Program-made: the position numbers and the translations under genes
Assembly (NCBI GenBank): GCA_043808035.1
Contig: JAZDFH010000054.1
Coordinates: 1-35,788, forward strand
Length of the DNA stretch: 35,788 nt
Source: a bacterium
Lineage (GTDB): Bacteria > Patescibacteriota > Minisyncoccia > UBA6257 > Colwellbacteraceae
Direction of reading: 5' to 3'
Notes under the pieces: generated by a model
The model's input: the letters and a program-made list of their open reading frames with translations, nothing else
Told to the model about the DNA's origin: nothing
Database searches by the model: none
Shown: one piece after another, positions 16,249 to 35,668 of the stretch
Numbering within the stretch: the stretch's first letter is position 1
How the letters are laid out: the number at the start of each line of letters is the position of its first letter

Positions 16249-17385
16249 ATGCGAAATAATATTCAAAAATTCAATAGAGATTCTGGATTTATTCGCAAAA
16301 CAGTATTTGTCGGTCTCTCTGGTGGTGTTGATTCATCTGTAACAGCACTTCTTTTACAAAAACAAGGGTTTGATGTCGTTGGTGTCCATTTGCGTTGTTG
16401 GAATAACAATGGATGTGATATTAGAGAGGCGGAAGATGCTCGGCGAGTTGCCGAACATCTTTCTATTCCATTTTATGTTTTTGATATGGAGGATCGATAT
16501 CGAAAGAGGGTTGTCGACTATATGATTACGGAATACAAACAGGGACGGACACCGAATCCTGATGTTATGTGCAACAAGGAAATTAAATTCGGGCTCTTTT
16601 TAGAAAAAGCTCGTTCGTTGCATGCAACATATATTGCGACTGGACATTATGTCAGGTTATGCAATAAAAAAAGTATGAAAACGGGAGATATCATTCATAC
16701 GTTATATAAGGGGAAGGATATTCATAAAGATCAAAGCTATTTTTTGTGGACATTAACACAAGAACAATTAAAGTATTGTTTATTTCCGATAGGTATATAC
16801 ACGAAAAGTCAGGTACGTGTCATAGCGCGTATGTCAGGTTTGCCCACGGCAGAGAAAAAGGACTCTCAAGGGATTTGTTTTATAGGGAATGTTACACTAA
16901 GGGACTTTTTACATATTTATCTCCCGGAGAAGCAAGGAGAGGTATGTACGCGGGACGGTAAGTGTATTGGGAAACATGCAGGGGTACAATTCTATACTAT
17001 AGGGCAACGGCATGGATTTACGATTACTAAACGGACACCTGATATCAGTCCTCATTATGTTGTTCGTAAGGAAGTAAAGACAAATACATTGATTGTTGCC
17101 GAAGGATCTCAAGACGCAGCATTATATCGAAATCGTATTGCGATACATTCGGTACATTTTATCGATCCAATATTTTTTAAACGTTTTAAAATCAAGAAGG
17201 TGCTGTCTGTATTTGCCCGTGTACGGTATGGTCAGGCGCTTGCCCCAGCTGTTGTTGCGTTAGCTGATGATCTGCGAGCAGAACTTATTTTTGAAACACC
17301 TCAACAGTTTATTGCTGCAGGGCAATCGGCAGTTTTTTATAAAAAAAGTGGTGAAATGATTGGAGGAGGGATTATTTCCGAATAG
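16249..17385 (+). CDS. mnmA: tRNA 2-thiouridine(34) synthase MnmA
   Basis: PP-loop LSGGVDSS, NPDVMCN catalytic Cys region, and KDQSYFLW. Length is 378 aa. Confidence 0.93.
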   Translation: MRNNIQKFNRDSGFIRKTVFVGLSGGVDSSVTALLLQKQGFDVVGVHLRCWNNNGCDIREAEDARRVAEHLSIPFYVFDMEDRYRKRVVDYMITEYKQGRTPNPDVMCNKEIKFGLFLEKARSLHATYIATGHYVRLCNKKSMKTGDIIHTLYKGKDIHKDQSYFLWTLTQEQLKYCLFPIGIYTKSQVRVIARMSGLPTAEKKDSQGICFIGNVTLRDFLHIYLPEKQGEVCTRDGKCIGKHAGVQFYTIGQRHGFTITKRTPDISPHYVVRKEVKTNTLIVAEGSQDAALYRNRIAIHSVHFIDPIFFKRFKIKKVLSVFARVRYGQALAPAVVALADDLRAELIFETPQQFIAAGQSAVFYKKSGEMIGGGIISE

Positions 17386-17389
17386 TAAG

Positions 17390-18664
17390 ATGAAACCGCA
17401 CGAAATAGGGTTTTATGGAGGACTTGCTTTTATTTTGGGTGTCATAGGTGCTCATTTTTTCAATTCTGCATATATCGCTCTTATTTTTTCGTGCTTACTT
17501 GTGTTTTGTTTTTATTTTGGACGACGAGTGCGGTTGGGAATTTTGATAGGGTGTGTCTTTTTTTTCGCATTTTTTTATACACATTTTTATAATTTTTGGG
17601 CGACGGTTGATTTTCCGTCATCGGAGGCGACTATAGTTATTGATGCTGTTGTTGTGGACTCTCCTCAAATGGCGGTTGATGGGCAAACATTTATTGTTTC
17701 GCTCAAAAAGCCGTACAGAGGAAATGTCATGGTATATGGTCCTTTATATCCTCGTGTACAGGCTGGTGATATTGTACAGGTAACAGGCGATGTTATATTG
17801 CCAAGAGATAAAAAAAGCTGGATACATGCATATAATTTTGTCATACAGAGAAGAGGAACGTCATTTGTATCGGTCTTGTTTTCATTTCGAATGATCATAC
17901 AAGAAAAGATTACAAGAGTGTTGCCTCCTCATGCCGCGGCTTTGCTTTCAGGAATTTTATTCGGAGAACGTGCGTCATTTTCAAAAGAATTATATGACGC
18001 CTTGGTAAAGAGCGGTACGATACATATTGTTTCTATGTCTGGATATAATGTTTCGATTATTACGGCAAGTATCATTAATTTTTTTTCATATTTTTGTGAG
18101 CGGAAGAAGGCGATGTATATTGCAGGTATCACGGTTCTTGTTTTTGTAATTATGACAGGAGCTCATGCGTCAGTCGTTCGTGCGGCATGCATGGGATTGT
18201 TAGTGTTATACGCAGAACTCGCTGGCAGAATATATTCTTTTCGTAACGCGTTAATTCTTACTGCCGCTGGTATGTTATTGTTCAACCCTCTCTTAATCAC
18301 GAATGTTGGATTTCAGCTCTCATTTATGGCGCTGGTTGGTATTGTGTATGGAGAACCTTTATTAAGAAAACTTTTTCGTTGGGAAAATAAAGATGGATTT
18401 TTCGGATGGAGGAAAAATTTTTTACAAACTCTCGCGGCTCAATGCGCAGTACTTCCTATACTGATTTACACATTCGGATCGGTATCTATTTTTTCGGTTG
18501 TGGCGAATGTCTTAATTATTTCGATTATTCCAGTGACTATGTTTTTAGGTTTTGGTATTATTGTATTTGGTTTTATATCGTATCATTTTTCTTTGATATT
18601 AGGATTAATAACATATATTTTACTTTCATATGAGATATTGGTTATACGCTTTTTTGGGGCTTAG
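17390..18664 (+). CDS. comEC: ComEC/Rec2 DNA-uptake channel, N-terminal part (OB/DUF4131-like + Competence domain)
   Basis: Polytopic membrane protein with Competence-domain-like segments (SGTIHIVSMSGYNVSIIT, HASVVRAACM). ATG 17390 lies just after the mnmA stop. It ends at TAG 18662-18664, immediately after a T6G4 run. Confidence 0.85.
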   Translation: MKPHEIGFYGGLAFILGVIGAHFFNSAYIALIFSCLLVFCFYFGRRVRLGILIGCVFFFAFFYTHFYNFWATVDFPSSEATIVIDAVVVDSPQMAVDGQTFIVSLKKPYRGNVMVYGPLYPRVQAGDIVQVTGDVILPRDKKSWIHAYNFVIQRRGTSFVSVLFSFRMIIQEKITRVLPPHAAALLSGILFGERASFSKELYDALVKSGTIHIVSMSGYNVSIITASIINFFSYFCERKKAMYIAGITVLVFVIMTGAHASVVRAACMGLLVLYAELAGRIYSFRNALILTAAGMLLFNPLLITNVGFQLSFMALVGIVYGEPLLRKLFRWENKDGFFGWRKNFLQTLAAQCAVLPILIYTFGSVSIFSVVANVLIISIIPVTMFLGFGIIVFGFISYHFSLILGLITYILLSYEILVIRFFGA

Positions 18665-19466
18665 CGTTATTACGATTTTTTTTGGGATATTGATCGGTGT
18701 GTTCGGTCCCAGTACGGCTGTAGACGTATATTTTTGTGATGTCGGTCAAGGGGATGGGGCGTTAGTTGTTTTACCTGGCAACGTAAAGATCGTTGTTGAT
18801 GGTGGTGTGGATGAAAGGATGGTATCGTGTCTTACACGTTATTTACCTATTCATGACAGAGTGATTGATCTTGTGATTATTTCGCATCCTGAAAAAGATC
18901 ATTATGCAGGGCTTATATCTGTATTAAACCAATATCGTGTACGTACGTTATTGTATAATGGGAGAGACGGACAAGGAGATTATTGGGATGAATTTGAACA
19001 TCAATTGGAAGTAAACAACGTTCAAAAAATAGCAGTAAGCGCCGGTGATACTGTACAGTATGCTGACTATACTTTGAAGTTCTTATGGCCATTCTCTACA
19101 AATAATGAGTCAAATAACGACGATTCTCTGATCTTGATGTTTGAGGGGCAAGGGATAAAAACTCTTTTTACCGGTGATATTGGTTTTGCTTCGGAGAATG
19201 TCATAACCGATATGTATGACGTTACAATTGATGTTTTAAAAGTTTCGCACCATGGTTCAGTCTATGCGACGGGAACGTATTTTCTACATGAAGCGAAACC
19301 CTATGTATCGATTATTTCCGTAGGAGAAAATTCGTATGGACATCCGCATCCATCATTGATACAAAGATTACAGTCAAGTGGGAGTGAAGTATATCGGACA
19401 GATATCGATGGGGATGTTCATCTTGTATATAAGGGTGGTATACTGGAAGCGTTTTCTCAAAAATAA
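18630..19466 (+). CDS. comEC: ComEC/Rec2 C-terminal part (TM helix + metallo-beta-lactamase domain)
   Basis: CDVGQGDGALVV, ISHPEKDHYAGL and VSHHGS are MBL-fold motifs of the ComEC C-domain. It overlaps the preceding ORF by 35 nt in the +1 frame. Confidence 0.85.
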   Translation: MRYWLYAFLGLSVITIFFGILIGVFGPSTAVDVYFCDVGQGDGALVVLPGNVKIVVDGGVDERMVSCLTRYLPIHDRVIDLVIISHPEKDHYAGLISVLNQYRVRTLLYNGRDGQGDYWDEFEHQLEVNNVQKIAVSAGDTVQYADYTLKFLWPFSTNNESNNDDSLILMFEGQGIKTLFTGDIGFASENVITDMYDVTIDVLKVSHHGSVYATGTYFLHEAKPYVSIISVGENSYGHPHPSLIQRLQSSGSEVYRTDIDGDVHLVYKGGILEAFSQK

Positions 19467-23304: not shown

Positions 23305-23398
23305 ATACCAAGTTTAGCATATTCTGTTTTTCAAAAAAAGAATGCATACAGTACAGTACTTCTCATATACTTTATTATCTGTTAAGATAATCACATAT

Positions 23399-23779
23399 AT
23401 GGATAATATAAATGCGCAAATACATATTTTGATAGCGGAAGATGAAATGGCAATGGGAAGGGCTCTCCAAATGAAGTTGCAACATATGGGATTTGTCGTT
23501 GAATCGGTTTTAAACGGAGAAGAAGCTCTACAGGCACTTGAGGTAAAACAATTTGAATTGTTATTATTGGATCTTATGATGCCGCTTGTTGATGGTTTTC
23601 GTGTGTTGACCACAATGAATGAAAAAAACTTGAAGGTTCCCGTGATCGTTATGTCAAATCTTGGGCAAACGGACGATATTAAACGAGCGAAAGAAATGGG
23701 AGCAGTTGGATATTTTATAAAGTCAGAGACACCCATTAAAGATTTGGTAACAGAAATTGGGAAAGTCTTGGGCTTATAA
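23399..23779 (+). CDS. Stand-alone response-regulator receiver (CheY-like) 1
   Basis: ILIAEDE acidic pocket, LLLDLMMP phospho-acceptor Asp, VMSNLGQ, and FIKS Lys. There is no output domain. I preferred the start at MDNINAQ (23399) over 23342. Confidence 0.88.
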   Translation: MDNINAQIHILIAEDEMAMGRALQMKLQHMGFVVESVLNGEEALQALEVKQFELLLLDLMMPLVDGFRVLTTMNEKNLKVPVIVMSNLGQTDDIKRAKEMGAVGYFIKSETPIKDLVTEIGKVLGL

Positions 23780-23858: not shown

Positions 23859-24317
23859 ATGATGATGAGCACGACGAGTGTTTTTGTTAGTTTTCGATAT
23901 ACAGAAATAGGTATCTATATTGATGGAGGAGACGCTTCTTCCGGTGGAAAGCAGTCAAGGCGTGTTTTTGTGGTTGAAGACGAGCAAATCATGGCGCGGA
24001 CATTGGAGTTAAAATTAAATCGATCGGGATTTGAGGCAAAATCTGCATTTGATGGAGCGACTGCTTTAAATATACTCAAAGATGAAAAGTTTGATCTTAT
24101 CTTATTAGATTTAGTTATGCCGAAGGTTGATGGATTTGCTGTGCTTTCGGAATTGAAGGCTCGTGGTAACAAAACGCCGGTTATTGTGATTTCTAATCTT
24201 GGACAAGAAGAGGATATAGAACGAGCGAAAAAACTTGGTGCAAAAGAATATTATGTAAAATCGTATACATCCGTTTCCCAGATTATTGATCATGTAAAAG
24301 AAACGCTTAATGCATAG
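23859..24317 (+). CDS. Stand-alone response-regulator receiver (CheY-like) 2 with ~35-aa N-terminal extension
   Basis: VFVVEDE, LLDLVMP, VISNLGQ and YVKS. It is a paralogue of receiver 1 and has no output domain. Confidence 0.85.
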   Translation: MMMSTTSVFVSFRYTEIGIYIDGGDASSGGKQSRRVFVVEDEQIMARTLELKLNRSGFEAKSAFDGATALNILKDEKFDLILLDLVMPKVDGFAVLSELKARGNKTPVIVISNLGQEEDIERAKKLGAKEYYVKSYTSVSQIIDHVKETLNA

Positions 24318-24341: not shown

Positions 24342-26018
24342 ATGGAACTGACAGATAAAAATATAAGAGAAGTTTTAATAGAAGGAGCTTATGTTGCTGA
24401 AGAAGATATGCAGCAATCCGAGAAAGCTTCGAAAGCGCATCATACGTCTTTGATGGAAGAATTGTTAATGGCTGGACTTGTTACCAAGGACTTACTTGGG
24501 CAGGCGGTGGCGGAGCATCTGGGTATTATTTACGCTGATCTCAACTCACACCAACCACCGCGTGAGCAGGTTTTAAAAATTCCTGAAGTTTTCGCAAAAA
24601 AATACAAAGTTGTTTTATTTCAAGAGGAGGACAAGACTGTGACCATTACGAGTGATTCTCCAGAAGCGAAAGGATTGCAAAAAGAAATCGAAAAGCTATT
24701 TAAAGGGAAGAAGATCATCTATGCATATTCGTTGAGTGATGATATAGATTTGGCATTTGTTCATTATCGAAAGGCGCTTGAGACGAGGTTTAGTAAAATT
24801 ATTAAGAAACAAAATCGTGTTGCTCCGGAGATTCTTGAAGAAATTCTCGATGACGCAGTTATTTACCGAGCATCTGATATTCATTTTGAACCGCAAGAAA
24901 TAGAAGTGGTTATTCGTTTTCGTATTGATGGTATTTTGGAAGAAGCAGGTAGAGTTGCAAAGGAATATTATGAAGGTGTCTTGAATCGTATCAAAGTGCA
25001 ATCGCATCTTCGTACAGATGAACACTTTACAACGCAAGACGGTGCAATCAGGCGTGTGACTGAAAGAGGACATTCAGTCGATTTGCGTGTTTCTATTATT
25101 CCTACGATTGATGGTGAAAAGGTTGTTATGCGGTTACTTGCTGCATACGTAAGAGGTTTTACTATGAGTGATGTCGGTTTAGGTTATACTGATCAAAAAA
25201 AGTTACTTGACGCATCGCATAAGCCATTCGGTATGATTTTGGTTACTGGACCGACCGGATCTGGTAAAACCACCACTCTTTATAGTGTTTTGAAGTTATT
25301 AAATCGACCCGAAGTCAATGTAACGACCATTGAGGATCCTGTCGAATATAAAATTCAGGGAGTCAATCATATTCAGGTAAATGAAGCAACTGGATTAACC
25401 TTTACGAAAGGATTACGTTCCATTGTACGTCAAGATCCCGACATTATTCTTGTTGGTGAGATTCGAGACCTTGATACCGCAGAAATTGCGGTTAATGCCG
25501 CGCTGACAGGACATTTATTGCTTTCAACATTTCATGCGAATGACGCCTCAACATCCGTTCCTCGTCTTTTGGATATGGGTATAGAGCCGTTTTTGCTTGC
25601 TTCGACGCTTGAGCTTATTATTGCACAACGGCTTGTTCGTCGACTTTGTGAGAATTGTCGATATAGTAAGATGATTGACAGAAATGATCTAAAAAGATGG
25701 ATTCAAAATCCTGAAGCATATTTTCCGCAAGAAAAAATTACGGTATATGAAGGAAAAGGATGCAACGTTTGCAATGAAACGGGGTTTAAAGGAAGAATTG
25801 CGATTTTCGAATTTATTCAGACCAGTCCGGAGATACAAGATCTTATTTTAAGTAATCCGTCGACAAAACAGTTATGGGATCTTGCGAAGTCGCAAGGAGC
25901 TCATTCGCTTTTCGAGGATGGCATCGAAAAAGTTAAACAAGGTATTACGACTGTGCAAGAATTGTTGCGGGTTGCCGCTCCGCATTACTTTAAAGATCGT
26001 CACGATGACGAAAAATAA
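24342..26018 (+). CDS. pilB: Type IV pilus assembly ATPase PilB (GspE family)
   Basis: N-terminal T2SSE_N-like domain, Walker A GPTGSGKTTT, Walker B ILVGEIRD, and the tetracysteine motif CENC...CNVC. Length is 558 aa. Confidence 0.93.
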   Translation: MELTDKNIREVLIEGAYVAEEDMQQSEKASKAHHTSLMEELLMAGLVTKDLLGQAVAEHLGIIYADLNSHQPPREQVLKIPEVFAKKYKVVLFQEEDKTVTITSDSPEAKGLQKEIEKLFKGKKIIYAYSLSDDIDLAFVHYRKALETRFSKIIKKQNRVAPEILEEILDDAVIYRASDIHFEPQEIEVVIRFRIDGILEEAGRVAKEYYEGVLNRIKVQSHLRTDEHFTTQDGAIRRVTERGHSVDLRVSIIPTIDGEKVVMRLLAAYVRGFTMSDVGLGYTDQKKLLDASHKPFGMILVTGPTGSGKTTTLYSVLKLLNRPEVNVTTIEDPVEYKIQGVNHIQVNEATGLTFTKGLRSIVRQDPDIILVGEIRDLDTAEIAVNAALTGHLLLSTFHANDASTSVPRLLDMGIEPFLLASTLELIIAQRLVRRLCENCRYSKMIDRNDLKRWIQNPEAYFPQEKITVYEGKGCNVCNETGFKGRIAIFEFIQTSPEIQDLILSNPSTKQLWDLAKSQGAHSLFEDGIEKVKQGITTVQELLRVAAPHYFKDRHDDEK

Positions 26019-27462
26019 AAAACCATTTTTCCAAAAAATAAAAGATCTTTTACTCTCTGAACGAGGTGGTAAGAGCACTGGTATGTTCGCCAATTTTGGG
26101 ATTTCCGAGGAACGGGAATATTTTATTGAAAACCTTGCGATGCTTATTTCATCTGGTATGAGTATTCTATCCGCTATCGATGCTATACGAGCCGAGATGA
26201 GATCAACTCGTATGCGTCATGCTCTTACTGACATCAGAGATGATGTTGACGCCGGTTTTACGATTTGGCGGGCTCTTGATAGAACAAAACTGGTAAAGCC
26301 GCATGTCATTTCTCTTATCAGAATTGGAGAAGAAGCGGGACGATTAACTGAAAATTTAAAGGTTGTTGTCGCTCAACAGCGAAAAGACAGTTCCTTCAGG
26401 TCTAAGTTGCGTTCAGCAATGATGTATCCAATCCTCGTTCTTGTCGTAACTCTCGTTGTCGGTATTGGTATTGCATGGTTTATTTTGCCTCGTCTTACCA
26501 ATGTTTTTTCATCAATGCATCTCGAATTGCCTCTTTTTACGAGGATTTTGATTTGGGTTGGTACTGTGTTACAGTCATACGGAATCATTATCATACCTGT
26601 TTTTTTAGTTGTGCTTTTTGTGCTTGGTTATTACATCTTTATATATCCAAAAACAAAGTTTATTGGTGAGATCATTTTAGCCCACATACCGGGGGTAAAG
26701 ACACTTATTATGCAAGTCGAAGTGTCACGGTTTTGTTATGTGTTGGGAACATTGCTTAATTCAGGTATGCCTGTCGTGGAATCATTAAATTCTCTTAAAG
26801 ACGCTACGACATCGATTATGTACGGTAAGTTTTATTCATATTTACGAGAAAGCATTGAAGAAGGAAGGACATTTCAGCAAAGCTTTGGAACATATCCGAA
26901 GTCAATCAAAATTGTACCTCGGCCTGTTCAGCAGATGATTATTGCAGCTGAAAATTCAGGAACGCTTGCCGATACGCTAATTCGAGTTTCGGAAATTTTT
27001 GAAGAAAAAACGGAAACTACAACAAAAAACCTTTCGGTTATTATGGAACCGATGTTGCTTTTCATTGTATGGGGTGGTGTTGTTGGTGTCGCTTTGGCTG
27101 TCATTATGCCGATTTACAGTTTGATCGGTGGATTAAATAAGGCAAAAACCGCACCCGCAAAACCACCTGTCAGTCAGCCTGTTCCTACTGCGAGTGGTAC
27201 TCCAGGAGGACATTCTTTGCCTGTGACAGAAGCGCCTGCCACTGCTCCCGCACAGCCCGTTCTATTGGTTGAGATTCTTGAAACACCGGAAGGTTCATTG
27301 AACGTGAGAAGTGCTCCTGGTGTTGATGGAAATGTTGTTGCTCGTGTTTATGCGGGAGAAGTGTATGAATATCAGGAAGAGCAAAACGGATGGTACAAAA
27401 TTATTTTACTTGATGGTAGCACGGGTTGGGTTTTCGGTAACTATGCGAGTCCAACACAGTAA
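26005..27462 (+). CDS. pilC: Type IV pilus platform protein PilC (GspF family) fused to a C-terminal SH3b-like domain
   Basis: Two GspF repeats (LISSGMSILSAID..., LLNSGMPVVESLN...) with three hydrophobic segments. ATG 26005 overlaps the pilB stop. The C-terminus has a Pro/Ala-rich linker followed by LNVRSAPG...GWYKI...GSTGWV. Confidence 0.9.
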   Translation: MTKNKKPFFQKIKDLLLSERGGKSTGMFANFGISEEREYFIENLAMLISSGMSILSAIDAIRAEMRSTRMRHALTDIRDDVDAGFTIWRALDRTKLVKPHVISLIRIGEEAGRLTENLKVVVAQQRKDSSFRSKLRSAMMYPILVLVVTLVVGIGIAWFILPRLTNVFSSMHLELPLFTRILIWVGTVLQSYGIIIIPVFLVVLFVLGYYIFIYPKTKFIGEIILAHIPGVKTLIMQVEVSRFCYVLGTLLNSGMPVVESLNSLKDATTSIMYGKFYSYLRESIEEGRTFQQSFGTYPKSIKIVPRPVQQMIIAAENSGTLADTLIRVSEIFEEKTETTTKNLSVIMEPMLLFIVWGGVVGVALAVIMPIYSLIGGLNKAKTAPAKPPVSQPVPTASGTPGGHSLPVTEAPATAPAQPVLLVEILETPEGSLNVRSAPGVDGNVVARVYAGEVYEYQEEQNGWYKIILLDGSTGWVFGNYASPTQ

Positions 27463-27488: not shown

Positions 27489-27941
27489 ATGTATTTTTCT
27501 TCTAAAAAAGGTTTTTCTCTTCTTGAAATGCTGCTTTCTATAGCAATCATTTCTTTGATAGGAGGGTTAAGTTTACCTATTTATTATTCTTTCCAAGCGA
27601 GGAATGACCTTGATCTTGCAACTGACGTTATTACTCAGGTGGTTCGGCGAGCAGAAATACTTTCTCGAACTATGACATATGACGATGGATGGGGGGTTTA
27701 TATAACTTCCGGCACTGCTACCTTGTTTAAAGGTAGTGACTATACAAGTAGAGATACATCATATGATGAGATATCCAGTATTGCACCAAGCGTTCAGATA
27801 AGCGGAGGTGCGGTTGAGATCACTTTCATAAAGATGACAGGGAATCCTATCTCGGCGCCAATCACTATCACTTTAAACTCTACAAGCGCAAACAATATCA
27901 GTATAATTACTATTAATGAGAAAGGGACTATCAGTTTTTAG
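27489..27941 (+). CDS. Minor pilin, GspH/FimU/FimT-like
   Basis: Class III signal MYFSSKKG|FSLLEMLLSIAIISLIGG (Gly-1, Glu+5). This is followed by a GspH-like pattern (ARNDLDLATDVITQVVRRAEILSR). Length is 150 aa. Confidence 0.8.
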   Translation: MYFSSKKGFSLLEMLLSIAIISLIGGLSLPIYYSFQARNDLDLATDVITQVVRRAEILSRTMTYDDGWGVYITSGTATLFKGSDYTSRDTSYDEISSIAPSVQISGGAVEITFIKMTGNPISAPITITLNSTSANNISIITINEKGTISF

Positions 27942-30900
27942 AAAAGATAAAAACATAAGTTCGTTTCGAGAAAAGTTTTTTTTCTATTTTCGTCGAAATG
28001 AAGGAATGAATTTGATTGAGGTTATCCTTGCAGGATCGATTTTTGTTATTGGTGTAACTGCCTTGGTAAGTATGTTGTTATACGGTCAAGAAGGTACTGT
28101 CTCCGGAGGGGAACAGTCTCGTGCGGTTTTTTTAGCTGAAGAAGGACTCGAAGCGATACGTAATATTCGTGATGAAGCATGGAATGAAATAGAAGCCGGT
28201 ACAGGAGCGGTTATGGTAGGCGGAAGTGAATGGGTATATGTACCTGGACCGGGGGAAGTTATAGACAGTTTTTATACACGGACAGTAACTATCGAAGATG
28301 TGTGTCGAGATAGTAGTAATCTTATTGTTGATTGTCCTGGAAGTTATACTGATTTGTATACTAAAAAAGCGACAGTCGATGTTACGTGGAAAAAACGTGG
28401 AGTTGATAGAGATGTAGAACGAGTGACATATCTTACGAATTGGGCATCAAGAGATTGGGTACAGACTGATTGGGGCGGAGGGCCAGGACAAGCGCTATGG
28501 TCTGATGTAACAAAATATGATACGGATCTCGCAATAGCTGAAAGTGAATCTGCGGGGCAGATACAGCTTACTCGCGAGGTGGGTGTTGTATCCGCTTCGT
28601 GGGATTTCGAAGTGGCTGATGATTATACATATACTCCTGCCGACATTGAGGTTGCTGGTGGATATGCGCAACTTAAAGGTGATTTTACGGAGTATACCAA
28701 TACATGGCCGTTCGATGTTGCGGGAAATTATACGTATGATTCGGGATTGATGGCAGTTTCAGGTGGTTCTGCTGTATTGATTAACGTTCCTGCCAGTTCT
28801 ACGACTACGTGGACATTCGATACTCCTGGTGAATATACATACGATCCAGCAAAAATAGGAGTCTCCGGAGGTTTGGCGAGTATGAAAAAAACATATGACG
28901 TTAATACAAAAGGGATATGGCATCTTAATGACGCAGTCGGTGCTACAGAAATTTCTGATGATTCTATTAATGCTAACAATCTTATAATTAATGGCAATCC
29001 GACATTGGGAGCTGGAGGGAAGTATGGTACCGGTGTTTTGTTTGATAGTAATGGTGATTATGGTGAAATAATTGATGCAAATCAGACAGGACTTGATGTG
29101 ACGGGACCACTCACGATTGATGCATGGGTCAAGAAGGCTGCTTATTCTGGTAGCGATTATATCGTTCGCAAGTGGACATCGAGTAATAACAGATCTTATT
29201 ATTTGTTAGTTACGAATACTGGAGCGTTGCAATTTTATGTACGTAATGGTGGTACACAAGGAGCAATCACATCTTCTGCGGGAGTGGTTCCTGTTGGTAC
29301 ATGGGTACATGTCGCTGCGGTATATGACGGATCTTTCCTCCGACTTTTTGTTAACGGGATAGGTGTTGCATCCGCGGTACCATATTCTGCCGATATTCAA
29401 GATGGTACCGCCCCGTTTAATATTAGTTATAGCGGCACGAGCAGTTTTAATGGAACGATTGATGACTTGCGAATTTCGTCGACAGCACGGTGGACGAGTA
29501 ATTTTACGCCTCCCTCTCAAGCGTATGGAGAATATGCAACTGATAAACCGACAACTTTACCGACGTCGTCTGTCACCGCGCCGTATGTTTCTCAATGGAC
29601 TAGTTTTACAGAGACAGCGACAAAGAATGGTGGAGAGATATATTACCAGTTATCAGATGATGATGGTTTGACGTGGAAGTATTGGGCAGGGAGTAGCTGG
29701 AGTGCTGCCGGAGTTAGCGACTATAATACGGCGACGGTGATAAATACCAATATCACGAGTTTTTCTGTCAGTAATAAAAAAATTATTTGGAAAGCATTCT
29801 TTGTAAGTAACGGTACTCAAGAAGTAATCTTGGATACTGTGTCGATTGCATATTCGAATGGTACTTCCGGATATGCAACAAACTCTCCTCCAATCTATCC
29901 AACAGCATCGTTTGAGCAACCAGAACTTACGGAGTGGGTAAGTTTTTCCGAGACAGCGACAAAGAATGGCGGAGAGATATATTACCAGTTATCAGATGAT
30001 GATGGTGCGATATGGCAATATTGGGATGGAGACAGTTGGGCGGTTGCAGGGAACAGTGATTATGATACTGCGACAGATGTTAATGCCAATATTCGTGAAT
30101 TCTCTACAACAAACAAAAGCATTTTATTTAAGGCATTTTTTGAGAGCGATGGAACACAGGAGGTTTCTCTCGATGGCGTTACTGTAGGCTACTATGCAGC
30201 GCCAGATGTTTATACACAAGGATTATGGCATTTGGATGAATCAAGCGGTTCTTTTATTGATGATTCAGGCAATGGTAACCATTTGACAGTAAACGGTAAT
30301 CCTACGTATGCTGTCGCGGGAAATTTTGATACGGCGATTAATTTTGACTCGAGTGGAGATTATGGATCCGTCGATGATTCGTCCCAAACAGGGCTTGATG
30401 TAACAGGGGCATTAACTATCGATGCGTGGGTATATCGACTCGCGAACAACAGTGGTGACTATATCATTCGCAAATGGACTTCTGGCAATGATCGGTCATA
30501 CCGATTATATACGCAAACGAGTGGAAGATTTATTTTCGAAGTACAAAACGGAGGTTCAAATGCGGTTATTACTTCAAATAGCGGAGTTTTGAACCCCAAT
30601 GAATGGCATCATATCGCTGCGGTTTATGACGGATCATATCTGCGTCTTTTTGTTGATGGGACATCTGTTGCAACGCCTATTTCATATTCGGACGGTATTC
30701 AGGATGGTGGGGCTCCTTTATGGTTAAGTAGTAGTGGTTCTGGTAGTTTTACCGGGTATATCGATGAAGCGAGAGTTTCAAATATTGCACGATGGATAAG
30801 TGATTTTACACCATCTGCTATTCCGTATAGCAACGTTGCTTCATATCCTTTAGACGGACCGTCAATTAATCCAAACAATTCTTTTGAAGCGGCAACCGTA

Positions 30901-32529
30901 GAGGAATGGAACGCTTTTATCGAAGAAGCTGAAAAGAATGGTGGAGAGATATATTATCAGTTATCAGATGATGATGGTGCGATATGGCAATATTGGACAG
31001 GCAGCAGTTGGACGGTTGCGGCAGGTCCGGTCGATTATAATACCGCAGAAGAAGTAAATATCAATATTGCCGATTTTTCGACATCCAATAGCAAGATTAT
31101 GTTTAAAGCATTCTTAGTAGGGGATGGGATGCAGCTTGTTCGATTGGATACGGTACGCGTAGCATACACGAGTCAAGGAGGTTCTTATTATGGAAATCAA
31201 TTTTTGACAACAAGTATTAATCCAAGCTCTTCAATCAATAATGACAATCGAAAATTAAGTTACCGATTTACCGCGCAATCGAGTAAAACAGTTGATAGAG
31301 TCAGTATTTATCAAGAAGCTTCCAGTGGTACGAGTACGTTCCGGGTTGGTATACAAGTTGATGATGGAAGTGGTAATCCTTCAGGAACGTTTTTAGGGTC
31401 TGCAACGTATAGTGGTGGAAATGGATGGAATACAATAAATATTTCCCCTGATGTTGATGTAACTTCAGGGGGGACGTATCACATTGTTATTGAGCGTGAT
31501 AGTGGATCTGGTTCTCGACAATATCGCTACTCACTTCCTGACAATAATATAACTTCATATGACAATACTGATGACGTTGCTATGGATGTTTTATGGACGG
31601 CGAATGGAGGTGGAAGTTGGATTGTGCAAGGGTGGCAGCCGATTTATATTTTGCAGTTTACTGATGGTTTTTCGGATGGGAACCCATATTATGATTCTTT
31701 GCAAGATGATACGACATATACCGTCATTTATGGGAATCAGCAATTCGGAGAAAATTTTACAGTGACAGGAGGGGATAAACAAGTTTCTGCTCTTGGATTT
31801 TATGTACGCAAAAGATCATCTGGTATTCCTGAAGATGATTTGTATGCAACGGTATATGATATGTCTCTTGGAGAAGATATTGATTCGGGTGTTGTTGTCC
31901 CTGCCGGTGCGATATTACAGACTTTCAGTTGGCAGAGTCTGCATTTTGCGGCGAATCTAACATTGACGGATGGACACCAATATCGAATTTCATTAAGTTC
32001 CCCGAATACGACGATAACAAATGGATATGATATATATGTAATGCAGACGGCAAACAGTAGTATTTATTATAACACCGGGTATGGAGAAACATTGGCGCGA
32101 TATTGTCGTTCTACGACAGGTGGTAGTAGTTGGACGTACTACAATTATTATGATATGGCATTTCGGTTTATCGATTATAGCGCGGCTTCATCATTATATT
32201 CTGAGTTAGGTTATCTTATCTCTTCGGCTCTCGATATGGGAGATGTGTCGCCCGTGCAAGCGATTGAGTGGGATGAGAGTATCCCTACATGCATACCGCA
32301 ATGTGAGATTAATGTGCAGGTACGAACGGCACCGGATAGTGGTGGCGTTCCAGGATCATGGACTGATTGGTATGGCTCTGCGGGAGCAGGGTCGTTTTTC
32401 GCGACATCGACGGGTTCAATAATCCCGAGCGCAATAAATGGCAATAGATGGGTACAATACAAAGCAACACTTATCGGGGATGGAGCAGATACGCCTATTT
32501 TAGAAGAAATGCGTATAAATTATCGTTAA
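27916..32529 (+). CDS. Giant PilV/GspI-like prepilin with two LamG (Laminin_G_3) domains and repeated modules
   Basis: ...FRRNEG|MNLIEVILAGSIFVIGVTALV has Gly-1, Glu+5 and a hydrophobic helix. Only start 27916 retains the leader, because 28006 is the +1 Met.
Domain layout:
- LamG_3-like segments at ~28915-29493 and ~30223-30795 (TIDAWV...VAAVYDGS.LRLFV.G...F.G.ID..R.S..ARW)
- three ~90-aa modules containing KNGGEIYYQLSDDDG
- three 35-aa repeats near 28600-28900
- two ~170-aa tandem modules at ~31185-32180. Confidence 0.85.
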   Translation: MRKGLSVFRKDKNISSFREKFFFYFRRNEGMNLIEVILAGSIFVIGVTALVSMLLYGQEGTVSGGEQSRAVFLAEEGLEAIRNIRDEAWNEIEAGTGAVMVGGSEWVYVPGPGEVIDSFYTRTVTIEDVCRDSSNLIVDCPGSYTDLYTKKATVDVTWKKRGVDRDVERVTYLTNWASRDWVQTDWGGGPGQALWSDVTKYDTDLAIAESESAGQIQLTREVGVVSASWDFEVADDYTYTPADIEVAGGYAQLKGDFTEYTNTWPFDVAGNYTYDSGLMAVSGGSAVLINVPASSTTTWTFDTPGEYTYDPAKIGVSGGLASMKKTYDVNTKGIWHLNDAVGATEISDDSINANNLIINGNPTLGAGGKYGTGVLFDSNGDYGEIIDANQTGLDVTGPLTIDAWVKKAAYSGSDYIVRKWTSSNNRSYYLLVTNTGALQFYVRNGGTQGAITSSAGVVPVGTWVHVAAVYDGSFLRLFVNGIGVASAVPYSADIQDGTAPFNISYSGTSSFNGTIDDLRISSTARWTSNFTPPSQAYGEYATDKPTTLPTSSVTAPYVSQWTSFTETATKNGGEIYYQLSDDDGLTWKYWAGSSWSAAGVSDYNTATVINTNITSFSVSNKKIIWKAFFVSNGTQEVILDTVSIAYSNGTSGYATNSPPIYPTASFEQPELTEWVSFSETATKNGGEIYYQLSDDDGAIWQYWDGDSWAVAGNSDYDTATDVNANIREFSTTNKSILFKAFFESDGTQEVSLDGVTVGYYAAPDVYTQGLWHLDESSGSFIDDSGNGNHLTVNGNPTYAVAGNFDTAINFDSSGDYGSVDDSSQTGLDVTGALTIDAWVYRLANNSGDYIIRKWTSGNDRSYRLYTQTSGRFIFEVQNGGSNAVITSNSGVLNPNEWHHIAAVYDGSYLRLFVDGTSVATPISYSDGIQDGGAPLWLSSSGSGSFTGYIDEARVSNIARWISDFTPSAIPYSNVASYPLDGPSINPNNSFEAATVEEWNAFIEEAEKNGGEIYYQLSDDDGAIWQYWTGSSWTVAAGPVDYNTAEEVNINIADFSTSNSKIMFKAFLVGDGMQLVRLDTVRVAYTSQGGSYYGNQFLTTSINPSSSINNDNRKLSYRFTAQSSKTVDRVSIYQEASSGTSTFRVGIQVDDGSGNPSGTFLGSATYSGGNGWNTINISPDVDVTSGGTYHIVIERDSGSGSRQYRYSLPDNNITSYDNTDDVAMDVLWTANGGGSWIVQGWQPIYILQFTDGFSDGNPYYDSLQDDTTYTVIYGNQQFGENFTVTGGDKQVSALGFYVRKRSSGIPEDDLYATVYDMSLGEDIDSGVVVPAGAILQTFSWQSLHFAANLTLTDGHQYRISLSSPNTTITNGYDIYVMQTANSSIYYNTGYGETLARYCRSTTGGSSWTYYNYYDMAFRFIDYSAASSLYSELGYLISSALDMGDVSPVQAIEWDESIPTCIPQCEINVQVRTAPDSGGVPGSWTDWYGSAGAGSFFATSTGSIIPSAINGNRWVQYKATLIGDGADTPILEEMRINYR
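29611..29667 (+). repeat. Intragenic near-identical DNA repeat, copy A
   Basis: 57 nt (gagacagcgacaaagaatggtggagagatatattaccagttatcagatgatgatggt). It differs from copy B at a single position. Confidence 0.9.
29950..30024 (+). repeat. Intragenic near-identical DNA repeat, copy B
   Basis: 29950-30006 matches copy A at 56/57 positions. 29962-30024 matches copy C at 61/63. Copy B lies 339 nt (113 codons) after copy A. Confidence 0.9.
30934..30996 (+). repeat. Intragenic near-identical DNA repeat, copy C
   Basis: 63 nt (aagaatggtggagagatatattatcagttatcagatgatgatggtgcgatatggcaatattgg). It has two C/T third-codon-position differences from copy B. Confidence 0.9.
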
Positions 32530-32535
32530 GCGTTT

Positions 32536-33063
32536 ATGCATCATAGAGCATTGAAATTACAAAGAAATAAACAAGGATTTACCTTAATAGAATTGTTATT
32601 ATATATTGGTATTTCCGCAGCGATGCTTACGATTGTCATTTCATTTTTATCTGTTTTGATGCAATCACGTATAAAGAATCAAACAATTGCTGAAGTTGAG
32701 CAACAAGGTGTACAGGTATTGCAATTGATAGACCATACCATTCGTAATGCGGAGGGTGTAATAGCTCCGCTTTCAGGAACGACTGATAGTATATTACAAC
32801 TTGATGTCCTTGATGTTTCAGCTGATCCGACTATTTTCGATGTTTCTGGTGGTTCGATTCGAATTACCGAAGGAGTAGGAAGTCCGATCGTATTAACATC
32901 GCCGCTTGTAACTATTACTAATATGCAGTTTACCAATTTATCTCGTACAGGAACGCCGGGGACAATCAGGATTTCTTTCACTTTGTCTCGCGTAAGTGTT
33001 GATGGAAAAAGTGAATACAATTATTCAAAGGAATTTTATGGGAGTATGAGCATAAGGAGATAG
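32536..33063 (+). CDS. Minor pilin, GspJ/PilW-like
   Basis: Class III signal ...LQRNKQG|FTLIELLLYIGISAAML (Glu+5). Length is 175 aa. The beta-rich body ends ...TIRISFTLSRVS..., as in PulJ-type pseudopilins (pattern-level call). Confidence 0.75.
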   Translation: MHHRALKLQRNKQGFTLIELLLYIGISAAMLTIVISFLSVLMQSRIKNQTIAEVEQQGVQVLQLIDHTIRNAEGVIAPLSGTTDSILQLDVLDVSADPTIFDVSGGSIRITEGVGSPIVLTSPLVTITNMQFTNLSRTGTPGTIRISFTLSRVSVDGKSEYNYSKEFYGSMSIRR

Positions 33064-33133
33064 TACGAAAAACATGATTCGTTTTGAATTTTGGAATCAA
33101 GAAACTTGTTTTTGAATTTTAATGTTTGATACA

Positions 33134-33142
33134 TGATATAAT
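33134..33142 (+). promoter_or_regulatory. Extended -10 promoter candidate internal to the pilin cluster
   Basis: TGaTATAAT ends 7 nt before ATG 33150. It lies in the only sizeable gap (86 nt) of the pilin gene row. Confidence 0.4.
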
Positions 33143-33149
33143 AAAAAAT

Positions 33150-33539
33150 ATGAGCAAAAGAGGAGGATTTATTACTCTCATGAGTGTCATCATTATGGTT
33201 GCCGTTGCTGCTTCTCTTGCAATATCGGTTATTTTGATGGGAGTTGATTCTTTACGGACTGGTCAGTCTATTGAAGCAGCCAATGAGGCAACTGCTATTG
33301 CTGATGCATGTGCTGAAGAATCGCTTGAACAAATTAGAGTGTATAATTTTATAGGAACTCAAAATTTAACGATTGGCAGTGGAACGTGTTCATATACGAT
33401 TACAAATGATGGTGGAGAAAATAGAACAATTGAGATATCAGCAGTGGCGTTGTCTGTTACTCGGCGTGTTCGTATTATTACGGACGTCATCACTCCTGAA
33501 ATTCATATTGCAACCTGGCAAGATGTTACATCATTTTAA
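33150..33539 (+). CDS. Minor pilin, GspK/PilX-like (no Glu+5)
   Basis: MSKRGG|FITLMSVIIMVAVAASLAISVIL has a hydrophobic helix after Gly-Gly, with Met at +5. It is followed by AIADACAEESLEQIR, a PilX_N-like pattern. The track ORF starts at TTG 33126. Confidence 0.7.
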   Translation: MSKRGGFITLMSVIIMVAVAASLAISVILMGVDSLRTGQSIEAANEATAIADACAEESLEQIRVYNFIGTQNLTIGSGTCSYTITNDGGENRTIEISAVALSVTRRVRIITDVITPEIHIATWQDVTSF

Positions 33540-33607: not shown

Positions 33608-35251
33608 ATGTATACATCTCATTCTTCAAAAGATCAAGCTTCTGCAGAATTAGTTTCAAAAAATTCTTTTTTCCGTACAGTTATCTTGCTTATTATTATT
33701 GCTATTTTAGTTGGTATTTTTGTTTTTCTAAAGACACCAACATTACAACGTTTAGGTCGAAAACATGATACTCAACGGTGGGCTGACGTTAATATTGTTT
33801 TGAATACCTTTTATGCGTATTTTCTTGAGCATAAATTTTTCCCACCCAATGTAGATGACAACTTACGTATTATCGGTACAGCGTATGATGGTTGCAGTGT
33901 TATATGTGGTGGTAAAGAAGGTACTCCTCTGGAATTAATTCATAGTGGTACGGGGTTTGATAATGGAATATATCAAAATATTGTATATAACAAGAGCAGT
34001 AATGCTTTGGTGCTGGAAGATTCGGAAAAACCTGGAGTATACACATCTCCGATTGTTGATGCAGATCTTGTCTCGACATGGGATTTTTTAGGATGGACTC
34101 CGTATGCTCCTTATGGGAAAGAGTTACTTGACGAAGGAGTTAAAGAAGATGGATATATCGAAGGGGATGTTGATATGGACAAAACAGTAACACTTTTTCA
34201 TTTTAATGATCTAATCGGGTCTACGATTTTTTATGACTCTTCAGGAAGTTACTTAGACGGTTTATGTCTCGGATCAATGTGCCCGACAGGAGGCGCAGAA
34301 GGGGTTTTTCACGGAGCAGTTTTATTCGACGGTGGTGATCTTCTCGCTGTTCCTCATGATGAGCGGTTTAATGCTATCCAAGGGTTTACTTTTTCAATGT
34401 GGGTGCTACCATATTCATTCCCTCGTTATGCGCCGATAATGTTGAAAACAAGTGATGATTCTTTTAATGATGGATATGGTATGTATTATGATGGCGATAC
34501 TAATGATTTGTGTGTATTTGTATCTGGAAATTCTTTATCAGTCGTGTGTAGCCCTTTTTCTCGTCGTGGTGCATTTTCACAGATAGGTGGAACGTATGAT
34601 GGGCATAAATTGTCACTTTATATAAACGGAGAGGAACGGGGAAGTACTGTCGTTGACGGTAATTTTAAGGCAAATGATATGCCGCTTTTAATTGGAGGAG
34701 GGGATAATACTACTGGCTGGCATGGGTTGATAGACGAATTTGTTTTTTTTAATAAGGCAATTACTGCTCGCGAGATGGAATCAATATATACAAGAGGTGT
34801 TATGACAGTAAAATATCAAGTTCGTTCATGTACCAATAATTCATGTAGCGAGGTGCAATTTGTAGGGGCTGACAATAGAACGGATACGTATTTTTCAGAA
34901 AGTGACAATAAGAATCCATCTTTTTCCCAAAGACGGTTATTCGTCCTATCAGATAGTAGATATTTTCAATATAGAGTATATTTTGAAACCACTGATAAAC
35001 GATTTTCCCCTCGAGTTGGTGCTATACAAATAGGATATGGTTATGGTGGAGTGAATGGTGAACAAACTGCCGAACAGTGTGTAAATTTGTCGCCGTTTTT
35101 AGAAGGAAAATTTATAGACAAATTACCGATTGATCCTAATACAGGAACAGTGCACAGAACACAGTATGCTATAAAAAAAACTACGAGTGGGCGTATCTAT
35201 GTTGAAGCGTGTTACCCGGAAGGAGATACTACTATCAGGGTAGTGAAGTAA
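33608..35251 (+). CDS. Pilin-paralogous membrane-anchored protein with inserted LamG domain
   Basis: - N-terminal hydrophobic helix FFRTVILLIIIAILVGIFVFL, without Gly-1 or Glu+5
- RKHDTQRWADVNIVLNTFYAYF and LRIIGTAYDGCSVICGG, which parallel the short pilin at 35312
- LamG_3-like segment at ~34186-34795 (FTFSMWV...IGGTYDGHKLSLYINGE...GLIDEFVFFNKAIT)
- C-terminal pilin-like end ...KLPIDPNTG...RIYVEAC. Confidence 0.8.
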   Translation: MYTSHSSKDQASAELVSKNSFFRTVILLIIIAILVGIFVFLKTPTLQRLGRKHDTQRWADVNIVLNTFYAYFLEHKFFPPNVDDNLRIIGTAYDGCSVICGGKEGTPLELIHSGTGFDNGIYQNIVYNKSSNALVLEDSEKPGVYTSPIVDADLVSTWDFLGWTPYAPYGKELLDEGVKEDGYIEGDVDMDKTVTLFHFNDLIGSTIFYDSSGSYLDGLCLGSMCPTGGAEGVFHGAVLFDGGDLLAVPHDERFNAIQGFTFSMWVLPYSFPRYAPIMLKTSDDSFNDGYGMYYDGDTNDLCVFVSGNSLSVVCSPFSRRGAFSQIGGTYDGHKLSLYINGEERGSTVVDGNFKANDMPLLIGGGDNTTGWHGLIDEFVFFNKAITAREMESIYTRGVMTVKYQVRSCTNNSCSEVQFVGADNRTDTYFSESDNKNPSFSQRRLFVLSDSRYFQYRVYFETTDKRFSPRVGAIQIGYGYGGVNGEQTAEQCVNLSPFLEGKFIDKLPIDPNTGTVHRTQYAIKKTTSGRIYVEACYPEGDTTIRVVK

Positions 35252-35311: not shown

Positions 35312-35668
35312 ATGTTTGGATATACACGTTTTAAAAAAAACATTGGAAATAATAGAAAAAAATTTTTTCGCAAAAAGGAAGGTTTTACCTTACTCGAAAT
35401 TCTTTTAGTAGTAACCGCTATTTCCATTCTTGCGAGTGTGGCCATTATGGCGATTAATCCCGCTTATCAATTAAAAAAGGTGCGGGATTCGCAGAGGGTG
35501 GCTGATATTCAAACACTTGCGAATGCCATTTATCAATATGCGGTTGATAATGGTGATATCCCTTCTTCAATTGACACGATATTGCGTATTTTAGGAACCG
35601 ATACAAACGGATGTAACGTAAACTGTGGTGGTGTCGCAGGAGATGTCACAGTATTTTCCAGTCCGTAA
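35312..35668 (+). CDS. Short type IV pilin (candidate major subunit)
   Basis: 24-aa basic leader MFGYTRFKKNIGNNRKKFFRKKEG|FTLLEILLVVTAISILASVAIMA (Gly-1, Glu+5). Then VRDSQRVADIQTLANAIYQY and CNVNCGG. The mature length is ~94 aa. Confidence 0.8.
   Translation: MFGYTRFKKNIGNNRKKFFRKKEGFTLLEILLVVTAISILASVAIMAINPAYQLKKVRDSQRVADIQTLANAIYQYAVDNGDIPSSIDTILRILGTDTNGCNVNCGGVAGDVTVFSSP

Follow-up and report, generated by a model that had tools for sequence, protein, structure and literature searches.

The stretch of DNA analysed here, called the window, comprises the 35,788 nt of contig JAZDFH010000054.1 (assembly GCA_043808035.1) from a member of the Colwellbacteraceae within the Patescibacteriota. 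With a GC content of ~0.39 and closely spaced housekeeping genes that nearly all share one strand, it looks like a segment of a Patescibacteria genome. It also contains a run of pilus genes that starts with two response regulators, PilB and PilC and continues with a 150-amino acid (aa) minor pilin, a giant protein of 1537 aa and further proteins of 175, 137, 547 and 118 aa (Table 1). The giant protein is the subject of this work. It combines an N-terminal pilin head with ~1350 aa of beta-sandwich modules, namely three repeats, two LamG_3 domains, three M modules, two T modules and one C-terminal (C) module. An earlier note, made from the letters of this DNA, had proposed that it is a prepilin of the I/PilV type to which lectin domains are fused.

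Table 1. Features of the giant gene, followed by those of the surrounding genes (positions in the 35,788-nt window)
Feature	Position	Strand	Basis
Basic leader of class III (prepilin) signal, 30 aa, ends in Gly-1	27916..28005	+	read from sequence
Pilin module, residues 31-177: Met+1, Glu+5, hydrophobic alpha1-N, long helix, 6-strand sheet	28006..28446	+	AlphaFold2 model, homologues
Linker W-x-QTDW-GG-x-GQ-x-WSD, conserved in large family members	28447..28548	+	sequence reading
Three 35-aa repeats, W-x-F-[DE]-x4-YTY-[TD]	28549..28896	+	motif search; recur in relatives
LamG_3 (concanavalin A-like) domain 1 (LamG1), residues 328-539	28897..29532	+	Pfam PF13385, best stretch 388-525
M1, ~113-aa beta-sandwich module (ETATKNGGEIYYQLSDDDG), residues 540-652	29533..29871	+	self-comparison
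M2, second ~113-aa module, residues 653-763	29872..30204	+	63-67% identical to M1
LamG_3 domain 2 (LamG2), residues 764-977	30205..30846	+	PF13385, second stretch
M3, third ~113-aa module, residues 978-1094	30847..31197	+	modelled beta-sandwich, 10-residue blocks at pLDDT 92-96
T1, ~170-aa DUF4082-like beta-sandwich module, residues 1095-1265	31198..31710	+	weak Pfam match; modelled all-beta
T2, second ~170-aa module, residues 1266-1425	31711..32190	+	weakly similar to T1
Conserved C-terminal module, residues 1426-1537, ends ...RINYR, plus stop codon	32191..32529	+	profile, model
ComEC, competence-domain membrane part	17360..18664	+	
ComEC, metallo-beta-lactamase part	18630..19466	+	
Response regulator, stand-alone	23342..23779	+	
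Response regulator, stand-alone	23859..24317	+	
PilB-type assembly ATPase	24342..26018	+	Pfam T2SSE E 4.8e-117, plus MshEN
PilC-type platform protein, C-terminal SH3_3	25882..27462	+	T2SSF twice, E 1.6e-46; SH3_3 E 6.8e-15
150-aa minor pilin, first (H-like) slot	27489..27941	+	Pfam N_methyl
175-aa minor pilin, third (J-like) slot	32536..33063	+	Pfam N_methyl
137-aa pilin-like protein without Glu+5 (GGFITLMSV), fourth (K-like) slot	33126..33539	+	sequence reading
547-aa pilin-like protein with its own LamG_3	33608..35251	+	PF13385 E 1.6e-22
118-aa GspG/PilA-like pilin	35312..35668	+	N_methyl; sub-threshold GspG E 7.6e-9

The giant gene is an uninterrupted open reading frame of 1537 codons (27916..32529, + strand). 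Its N-terminus reads MRKGLSVFRKDKNISSFREKFFFYFRRNEG/MNLIEVILAGSIFVIGVTALVSMLL, where the slash marks the predicted cleavage site before MNLIEV, with Gly at -1, Met at +1, Glu at +5 and a hydrophobic helix thereafter. The leader contains nine basic and three acidic residues, which gives a net charge of about +6. Around RRNEG/MNLIEVILAGSIFVIGVTALVSMLL, Gly-1 and Glu+5 are joined by ~20 residues of hydrophobic sequence, which completes a class III signal, and the sequence bears out the earlier description of a 1537-aa reading frame with a 30-aa basic leader, Gly-1 and Glu+5. No in-frame ATG, GTG or TTG is found between 27916 and 28006, so the start is either at 27916 or at a leaderless Met at 28006. 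In the first case the gene overlaps the upstream 150-aa pilin gene by 26 nt. A start at 27916 is supported because the small orthologues that occupy the identical slot, P0021 (146 aa) and P0009 (212 aa), also have starts that overlap their upstream gene, by 26 nt (locus L033) and 50 nt. Leaders of the family have a median length of ~10 aa and reach at least 30 aa in 9 of 212 cases in a rough regex count, which places the leader of the giant protein in the upper tail. All relatives carry a leader that ends in Gly; orthologues that begin at the equivalent of Met 28006 and lack leader and Gly-1, which the earlier note had named as evidence against its proposal, were not encountered. A 2414-aa relative (P0048, locus L014), otherwise a clear family member, has Gly in place of Glu at +5 (NKG/QSILGV).

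The unusual leader length would also fit a mis-called start with the protein beginning at Met 28006, and the internal repetitiveness of the reading frame could point to a chimeric or collapsed assembly, the more so as only one contig on record encodes this exact protein. Repeat collapse is nevertheless unlikely because no DNA repeat exceeds 77% identity: the longest one spans 152 nt, at 77% and 66% identity. The DNA copies of M1 and M2 are spaced 339 nt apart. The frame stays open over 4.6 kb. Head, module grammar and C-terminal module are common to relatives from independent samples, and P0048 is found identically in two independent assemblies. Leader and Gly-1 are present in all relatives, and the overlapping start recurs in L033. 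In view of the repeat divergence, the relatives and this overlap, mis-assembly and a leaderless start were both rejected as unlikely, and we consider an artefact of either kind highly improbable.

The AlphaFold2 model of the head has a mean predicted local distance difference test score (pLDDT) of 83, with blocks over residues 31-170 at 87-97. It predicts the lollipop fold of pilins, with a helix from residue 33 to 91 followed by six strands across residues 95-173. The head includes a Cys130-Cys140 loop and ends in a TYLTNW motif. A search with residues 1-221 retrieved 44 homologues, nearly all of 140-320 aa and from Parcubacteria-type organisms. Their leaders are clear, as in ...KG/FSLVEV; several of them match Pfam N_methyl, and for one the source gives the name PilV. 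In an alignment of 31 head-family sequences Glu35, the Glu+5 of the mature protein, is invariant, and it is the commonest residue at this position in a wider, rough count; the motif EEGLEA-R-IRD is invariant or nearly so. N_methyl is matched by 25 of the 31 members. Matches to NCBIfam profiles are sub-threshold and fall on ComGE (29/31), XpsI (23/31), PilV (23/31) and GspI (15/31), with GspJ and GspK at 4/31 each. Compared with PDB sequences, the head-family profile gives marginal matches only (LigA, E 0.007; geopilin, E 0.02). We regard the giant protein as very probably a member of the pilin family.

Nine relatives of ~200 aa (P0003, P0005, P0008, P0009, P0011, P0016, P0017, P0022 and P0026) have the same head with a Cys-rich C-terminal domain of ~55 aa instead of the modules. 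Its pattern is C..YC...G...GTCR.N..QC..N.E....GD..C....CC..P, present in two copies in P0017, and a few of these relatives give weak defensin- or gamma-thionin-like Pfam matches. On the same pilin slot, this domain represents a graft of another kind, and a miniature one.

Behind the head, the linker is seen in P0001, P0046-P0049, P0085, P0111, P0120 and P0122, and AlphaFold2 confidence is low in this part. The repeat motif that follows occurs three times at a period of 35 aa, with Trp codons at 28600, 28705 and 28810. Pfam Laminin_G_3 (PF13385) is matched twice above its cut-off (E 1.3e-41, 142.7 bits against 27.6), as the earlier note had expected of a profile search, and Laminin_G_2 and Laminin_G_1 matches lie at residues 862-954 within LamG2. 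The two LamG domains are 53% identical. Similarity among the modules was assessed by windowed BLAST and by z-scores of shuffled Smith-Waterman alignments, as self-BLAST of the whole protein returned the identity match only. M1, M2 and M3 are mutually 60-67% identical and each contains KNGGEIYYQLSDDDG. T1 and T2 are weakly alike (z 5.7), and the T-T pair recurs in the relatives P0046, P0047, L010 and L025. The match of T1 to DUF4082 (PF13313) at residues 1108-1202 stays below the gathering score (E 1.3e-5, 25.6 bits against 28.4); relatives with the T-T pair carry precomputed PF13313 matches. The repeats, the LamG_3 pair, the three ~113-aa modules and the two ~170-aa modules are all present where the earlier note had placed them. 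The related C-terminal module described there exists too, but its kinship is with M (z 6-8) and not with the ~170-aa T modules. This M-C relationship is tentative, as hhalign gives an E of 0.0026 at 11% probability.

For residues 968-1537, AlphaFold2 predicts four all-beta domains with low-confidence linkers between them, at a mean pLDDT of 79.6; in the C-terminal module most 10-residue blocks reach 86-96. Profiles of M, C and T gave nothing significant against PDB sequences, and LamG1 gave weak matches only, to the S-layer protein 4qvs, pappalysin and the arabinanase 5hon. At the level of structure, Foldseek of the same model against the PDB matched multi-domain beta-sandwich arrays with E down to 8e-6, among them baseplate proteins of phage phi812, central-fibre proteins of Douge, neuropilin, reelin, botulinum HA70, BcsB and carbohydrate-binding modules of an Akkermansia glycosidase. 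Against BFVD the matches are to phage tail, minor-tail and host-specificity proteins, with E down to 3.6e-11. We read these predicted folds as a likeness in kind, that is chains of binding-type beta-sandwiches, which would indicate neither homology nor a ligand.

The genes in the run are separated by gaps of 7-70 nt or overlap, and because of these short distances we read the run as an operon; a scan for promoters and terminators gave no more matches than shuffled sequence and does not enter this reading. The order PilB, PilC, 150-aa pilin, giant, 175-aa pilin, 137-aa protein recurs in the loci of two large relatives. It is also kept, whole or in the part held by the contig, in nearly all of 28 loci from GTDB species representatives. 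Upstream of the giant gene, 20 of the 28 have a homologue of the 150-aa pilin; 26 contain one of the 175-aa pilin, which in most directly follows the giant gene, and adjacency to PilB/PilC is conserved in related loci that reach far enough upstream. The small head-family members P0021 and P0009 fill the exact slot of the giant gene in otherwise identical operons. Because ordinary-sized members of the family occupy this very slot, the giant protein is, as judged from sequence and gene order, the orthologue of a normal core minor pilin to which modules have been added. The I/PilV position claimed by the earlier note stands insofar as PilB-PilC are followed by a conserved set of four minor-pilin genes of which this gene is the second, while the H, J and K identities of its neighbours are putative.

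This setting also bears on whether the protein enters a filament at all. A class III signal and alpha1 may serve for export and anchoring alone, and the 1350-aa stalk would then cross the envelope from the cell body, the protein being a surface protein that is never part of a pilus. Such non-filament anchoring has a precedent in the archaeal "bindosome", whose sugar-binding proteins carry class III signals. The signal of the giant protein is atypical in its 30-aa leader, its Met+1 and the missing N_methyl match, ~150 kDa of modules might not easily pass through, or be borne by, a thin pilus, and in the neighbouring LamG protein of 547 aa the pilin-like helix lacks both Gly-1 and Glu+5. Yet Glu+5, which is needed for packing of filament subunits, is the residue that does not vary in the aligned head family, the gene is fixed in a minor-pilin cassette beside pilB and pilC across many lineages, and its small orthologues are ordinary pilins. 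Bulky modular pilins are, moreover, built into the pili of Streptococcus sanguinis (PMC8179133, PMC9934059). We therefore consider a merely anchored protein unlikely.

The fusion of head and modules is widespread. A search with the full-length protein found four relatives only (P0046-P0049, 1056-2414 aa), and the idea that the fusion is rare was rejected, since LamG-rich candidates had crowded out relatives in this search. With residues 968-1537 as query, 95 Patescibacteria proteins with shared M, T and C modules were retrieved, several of which are named prepilin, PilV or PulG by their source. At E <= 1e-3 the C-terminal module is found in 745 cluster representatives (50% identity), at E <= 1e-10 in 320, and 134 representatives were newly sampled for architecture. 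In 125 of the 134 it lies at the extreme C-terminus, and 93 carry the same pilin head, which answers the earlier call for a survey of related genomes in favour of the fusion. The 93 head-bearing proteins have a median length of 1015 aa; 54 reach at least 1000 aa, eight at least 1500 aa, and the longest has 2277 aa. A minimal relative of 315 aa (P0001) consists of head, linker and C-terminal module. Between the constant ends the architectures vary, with PIL-R-L-M-C, PIL-R-R-M-M-T-T-C and PIL-L-L-...-L-L-C next to others with long unassigned stretches. The lineages named in the records include Falkow-, Magasanik-, Campbell-, Ryan-, Wildermuth- and Dojkabacteria as well as Paceibacterota. By its sequence, the giant gene is a typical, large member of a widespread modular-pilin family and not a one-off. 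The C-terminal module also occurs as internal tandems of 3-6 copies in large proteins without a pilin head (P0286, 4391 aa; P0246, 3686 aa; P0164, 2736 aa; P0292, 1391 aa), and because of these copies we classify it as a mobile beta-sandwich module that is not exclusive to pilins.

We propose the following mechanism. A prepilin peptidase would remove the leader, and the head would join a priming complex of the H-I-J-K kind, which initiates the fibre and comes to lie, head included, at its tip. The mechanism draws on what is established for type IV filaments, as outlined in PMC9934059 and PMC8179133. A flexible chain of modules would then be displayed at the distal end, where the LamG and other carbohydrate-binding-module-like domains may bind glycans on host or partner surfaces, or another substrate, in a multivalent manner. 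The variable middle likely sets the binding specificity because relatives exchange modules there, while their head and C-terminal module stay constant. The giant protein is in this way probably an adhesin that an ultrasmall Patescibacteria cell carries on its pili. We find the full chain of inferred steps, from leader cleavage through tip priming complex and module display to glycan binding, reasonably probable. Of the prepilin-plus-lectin fusion put forward in the earlier note, the pilin-type head with grafted extracellular lectin-like modules holds; tip and glycan roles keep the conditional standing given here.

Several observations weigh against this proposal. The giant protein itself has no N_methyl match (PF07963 or TIGR02532) at E <= 0.1 or E <= 1, and its residue +1 is Met. 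The I-type profiles stay below their curated cut-offs (18-22 bits against 44-52): PilV TIGR02523, matched by the head at E 0.0029 to 0.00022, reaches 18.1-21.7 bits against 52.2, and GspI 13.6 against 44.35. Foldseek of the head model against the PDB shows no significant match and no pilin among the top ones (best E 0.077), a comparison limited by the fact that solved pilins are mostly helix-truncated, and the fold matches of the modules have low TM-scores of 0.1-0.25. The labels H, J and K of the neighbours derive from gene order and a missing Glu+5, not from profile matches. No prepilin peptidase gene is present in the 35,788-nt window. In the S. sanguinis model, moreover, subunits other than the I-like PilA carry the modules, PilA itself being unmodified (PMC9934059). 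For the I-type identity of the head, the operon position and the consistency of the weak profile matches provide support but not proof. The I/PilV-type assignment of the earlier note retains the slot order and the recurrent sub-threshold I-type matches in its favour, although every profile remains below cut-off.

A true pilus subunit could also carry its modules for other tasks, such as capture of environmental polysaccharides or particles, contact with its own envelope, aggregation, or Com-like DNA uptake. The competence pilin ComGE is among the strongest sub-threshold matches of the head family, and a DNA-uptake role has been proposed for candidate phyla radiation (CPR) pili (PMC5220378). 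ComEC genes lie within the window, a few kb upstream of the pilus operon and as two overlapping reading frames, and they bear on this DNA-uptake reading of CPR pili. LamG_3-like modules serve in glycosidases as carbohydrate-binding modules for plant or algal polysaccharides, as described in a reference cited in PMC10066038 and as in the arabinanase 5hon. On the other hand, profile searches with Pfam and NCBIfam found no catalytic or DNA-binding domain in the giant protein, the shuffling of modules among relatives fits a diversifying recognition of partners, and lectin-like minor pilins affect host binding in the one CPR system tested (PMC11623550). We judge such other tasks quite unlikely and retain a role in adhesion as the preferred reading.

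Beyond adhesion as such, the second-slot (I-type) minor pilin of Patescibacteria may act as a host-range determinant, built like a phage receptor-binding protein: a constant head would plug into the tip complex, the C-terminal module would be constant as well, and a middle cassette of lectin-like beta-sandwich modules would be reshuffled from lineage to lineage to track the cell-surface glycans of the partner. We offer this as a speculative possibility that could well prove wrong. If true, the family would be a readable marker that predicts which episymbiont binds which host.

The remaining genes of the run add some detail. The 118-aa pilin is the probable major subunit. The 137-aa protein matches the pilin-head hidden Markov model (HMM) of the giant protein well past the helix (residues 12-116, E 8.5e-7), which suggests a paralogue of this head, possibly a K/PilX-like cap. 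In the 547-aa protein, the N-terminal hydrophobic helix without the two signal residues is followed by a stretch like alpha1-C of the major pilin, LamG_3 at residues 242-389 and a pilin-like C-terminal end. The C-module HMM finds no significant match in it, though a similar stretch after LamG is visible by eye. A 570-aa homologue with N_methyl and LamG_3 directly follows the giant gene in L003. The PilC platform protein has a Pro/Ala-rich linker before its SH3_3 domain, which is weakly matched also in the CPR locus L034 (4184-5617). The TTG listed as start of the PilC gene in the window lies 137 nt inside pilB, so that translation probably begins at an ATG further downstream. The two response-regulator genes stand immediately upstream of pilB, and the arrangement of response regulator, PilB and PilC is also found in related loci (L001, 6161-6529; L034, 2123-2485). 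In some related loci, large PAS/dCache histidine kinases are encoded downstream of the pilins.

Most ultrasmall Patescibacteria cannot be cultured. The family described here spans hundreds of sequence clusters and offers a concrete candidate for the device by which such cells find and hold their hosts. The principle that adhesive modules are grafted onto minor pilins is already established. What may be new in descriptive terms is a very large family defined by head and C-terminal module, with a fixed I-like slot and a cassette-like middle; a limited literature search found no paper on this specific family. That many of its members, the giant protein included, escape surveys based on N_methyl may be new as well. 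The value of the work is incremental and lies in a family-level description with a large example rather than in a new mechanism.

In the earlier note, a pilin-borne adhesin was regarded as unusual, adhesion being normally supplied by a separate non-pilin protein. The first premise was overstated, as there are precedents (PMC8179133, PMC9934059, PMC11623550) and the fusion is common in Patescibacteria. The second describes classical diderm type IVa pili but is not the whole picture. In these pili, the core minor pilins present PilY1/PilC, a large modular adhesin, at the tip, and the giant protein would resemble it as a putative tip adhesin. Module types of the PilY1 N-terminus are also found in modular pilins (PMC8179133). 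PilY1 itself is not a pilin, and the C-terminal beta-propeller by which it is defined was not found in the giant protein. A PilY1-like identity was rejected, with no PilY1 domain in Pfam and NCBIfam and a pilin N-terminus present. CofB of enterotoxigenic Escherichia coli and TcpB of Vibrio cholerae share the layout of pilin head, linker and beta-repeat or beta-sandwich domains and are tip-located and involved in binding (PMC8179133). They differ as type IVb pilins with a homotrimeric tip, only two extra domains and an unrelated sequence.

The closest general framework is that of Raynaud et al. (2021), who defined modular pilins and counted more than 1200 of them in 264 architectures (PMC8179133). 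PF13385 is among the carbohydrate-binding grafts that they list, and many of the examples come from CPR phyla such as Magasanik-, Falkow-, Wolfe-, Gracili-, Sacchari- and Parcubacteria (PMC8179133). The giant protein likewise consists of an N-terminal pilin module and grafted binding modules that are not pilus-specific, and with its head and two Laminin_G_3 domains above cut-off it falls under their definition of a pilin module plus at least one non-pilus domain. The survey required a match to IPR012902 (N_methyl), which the giant protein lacks. The largest case reported there has 860 aa (PMC8179133), compared with 1537 aa and 11 extra modules here, and we found no description in it of the conserved C-terminal module or the fixed operon slot.

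Glycan binding has been shown experimentally for PilC of S. sanguinis (2023), a pilin with Ig-like and concanavalin A (ConA)-like lectin modules whose tip complex was modelled with the I-like partner PilA (PMC9934059). As in the giant protein, a minor pilin carries a lectin module of the ConA/LamG superfamily. In S. sanguinis, however, an unmodified I-like PilA stabilises PilC, whereas the I-like slot is taken here by the very subunit that bears the grafts; eleven extra modules compare with two in PilC, and LamG1 gives no PilC match in PDB sequences. A further parallel is provided by PilX1 and PilX2 of Nanosynbacter lyticus TM7x (2024), lectin-like minor pilins that were proposed as adhesins in a system where rhamnose inhibited host binding (PMC11623550). 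TM7x is itself a member of the Patescibacteria and an episymbiont, and its large minor pilins bear C-terminal jelly-roll or beta-propeller lectin-like domains and are proposed to act as tip adhesins. They are other pilin subunits with other domains, and each carries a single accessory domain where the giant protein carries a long chain of modules.

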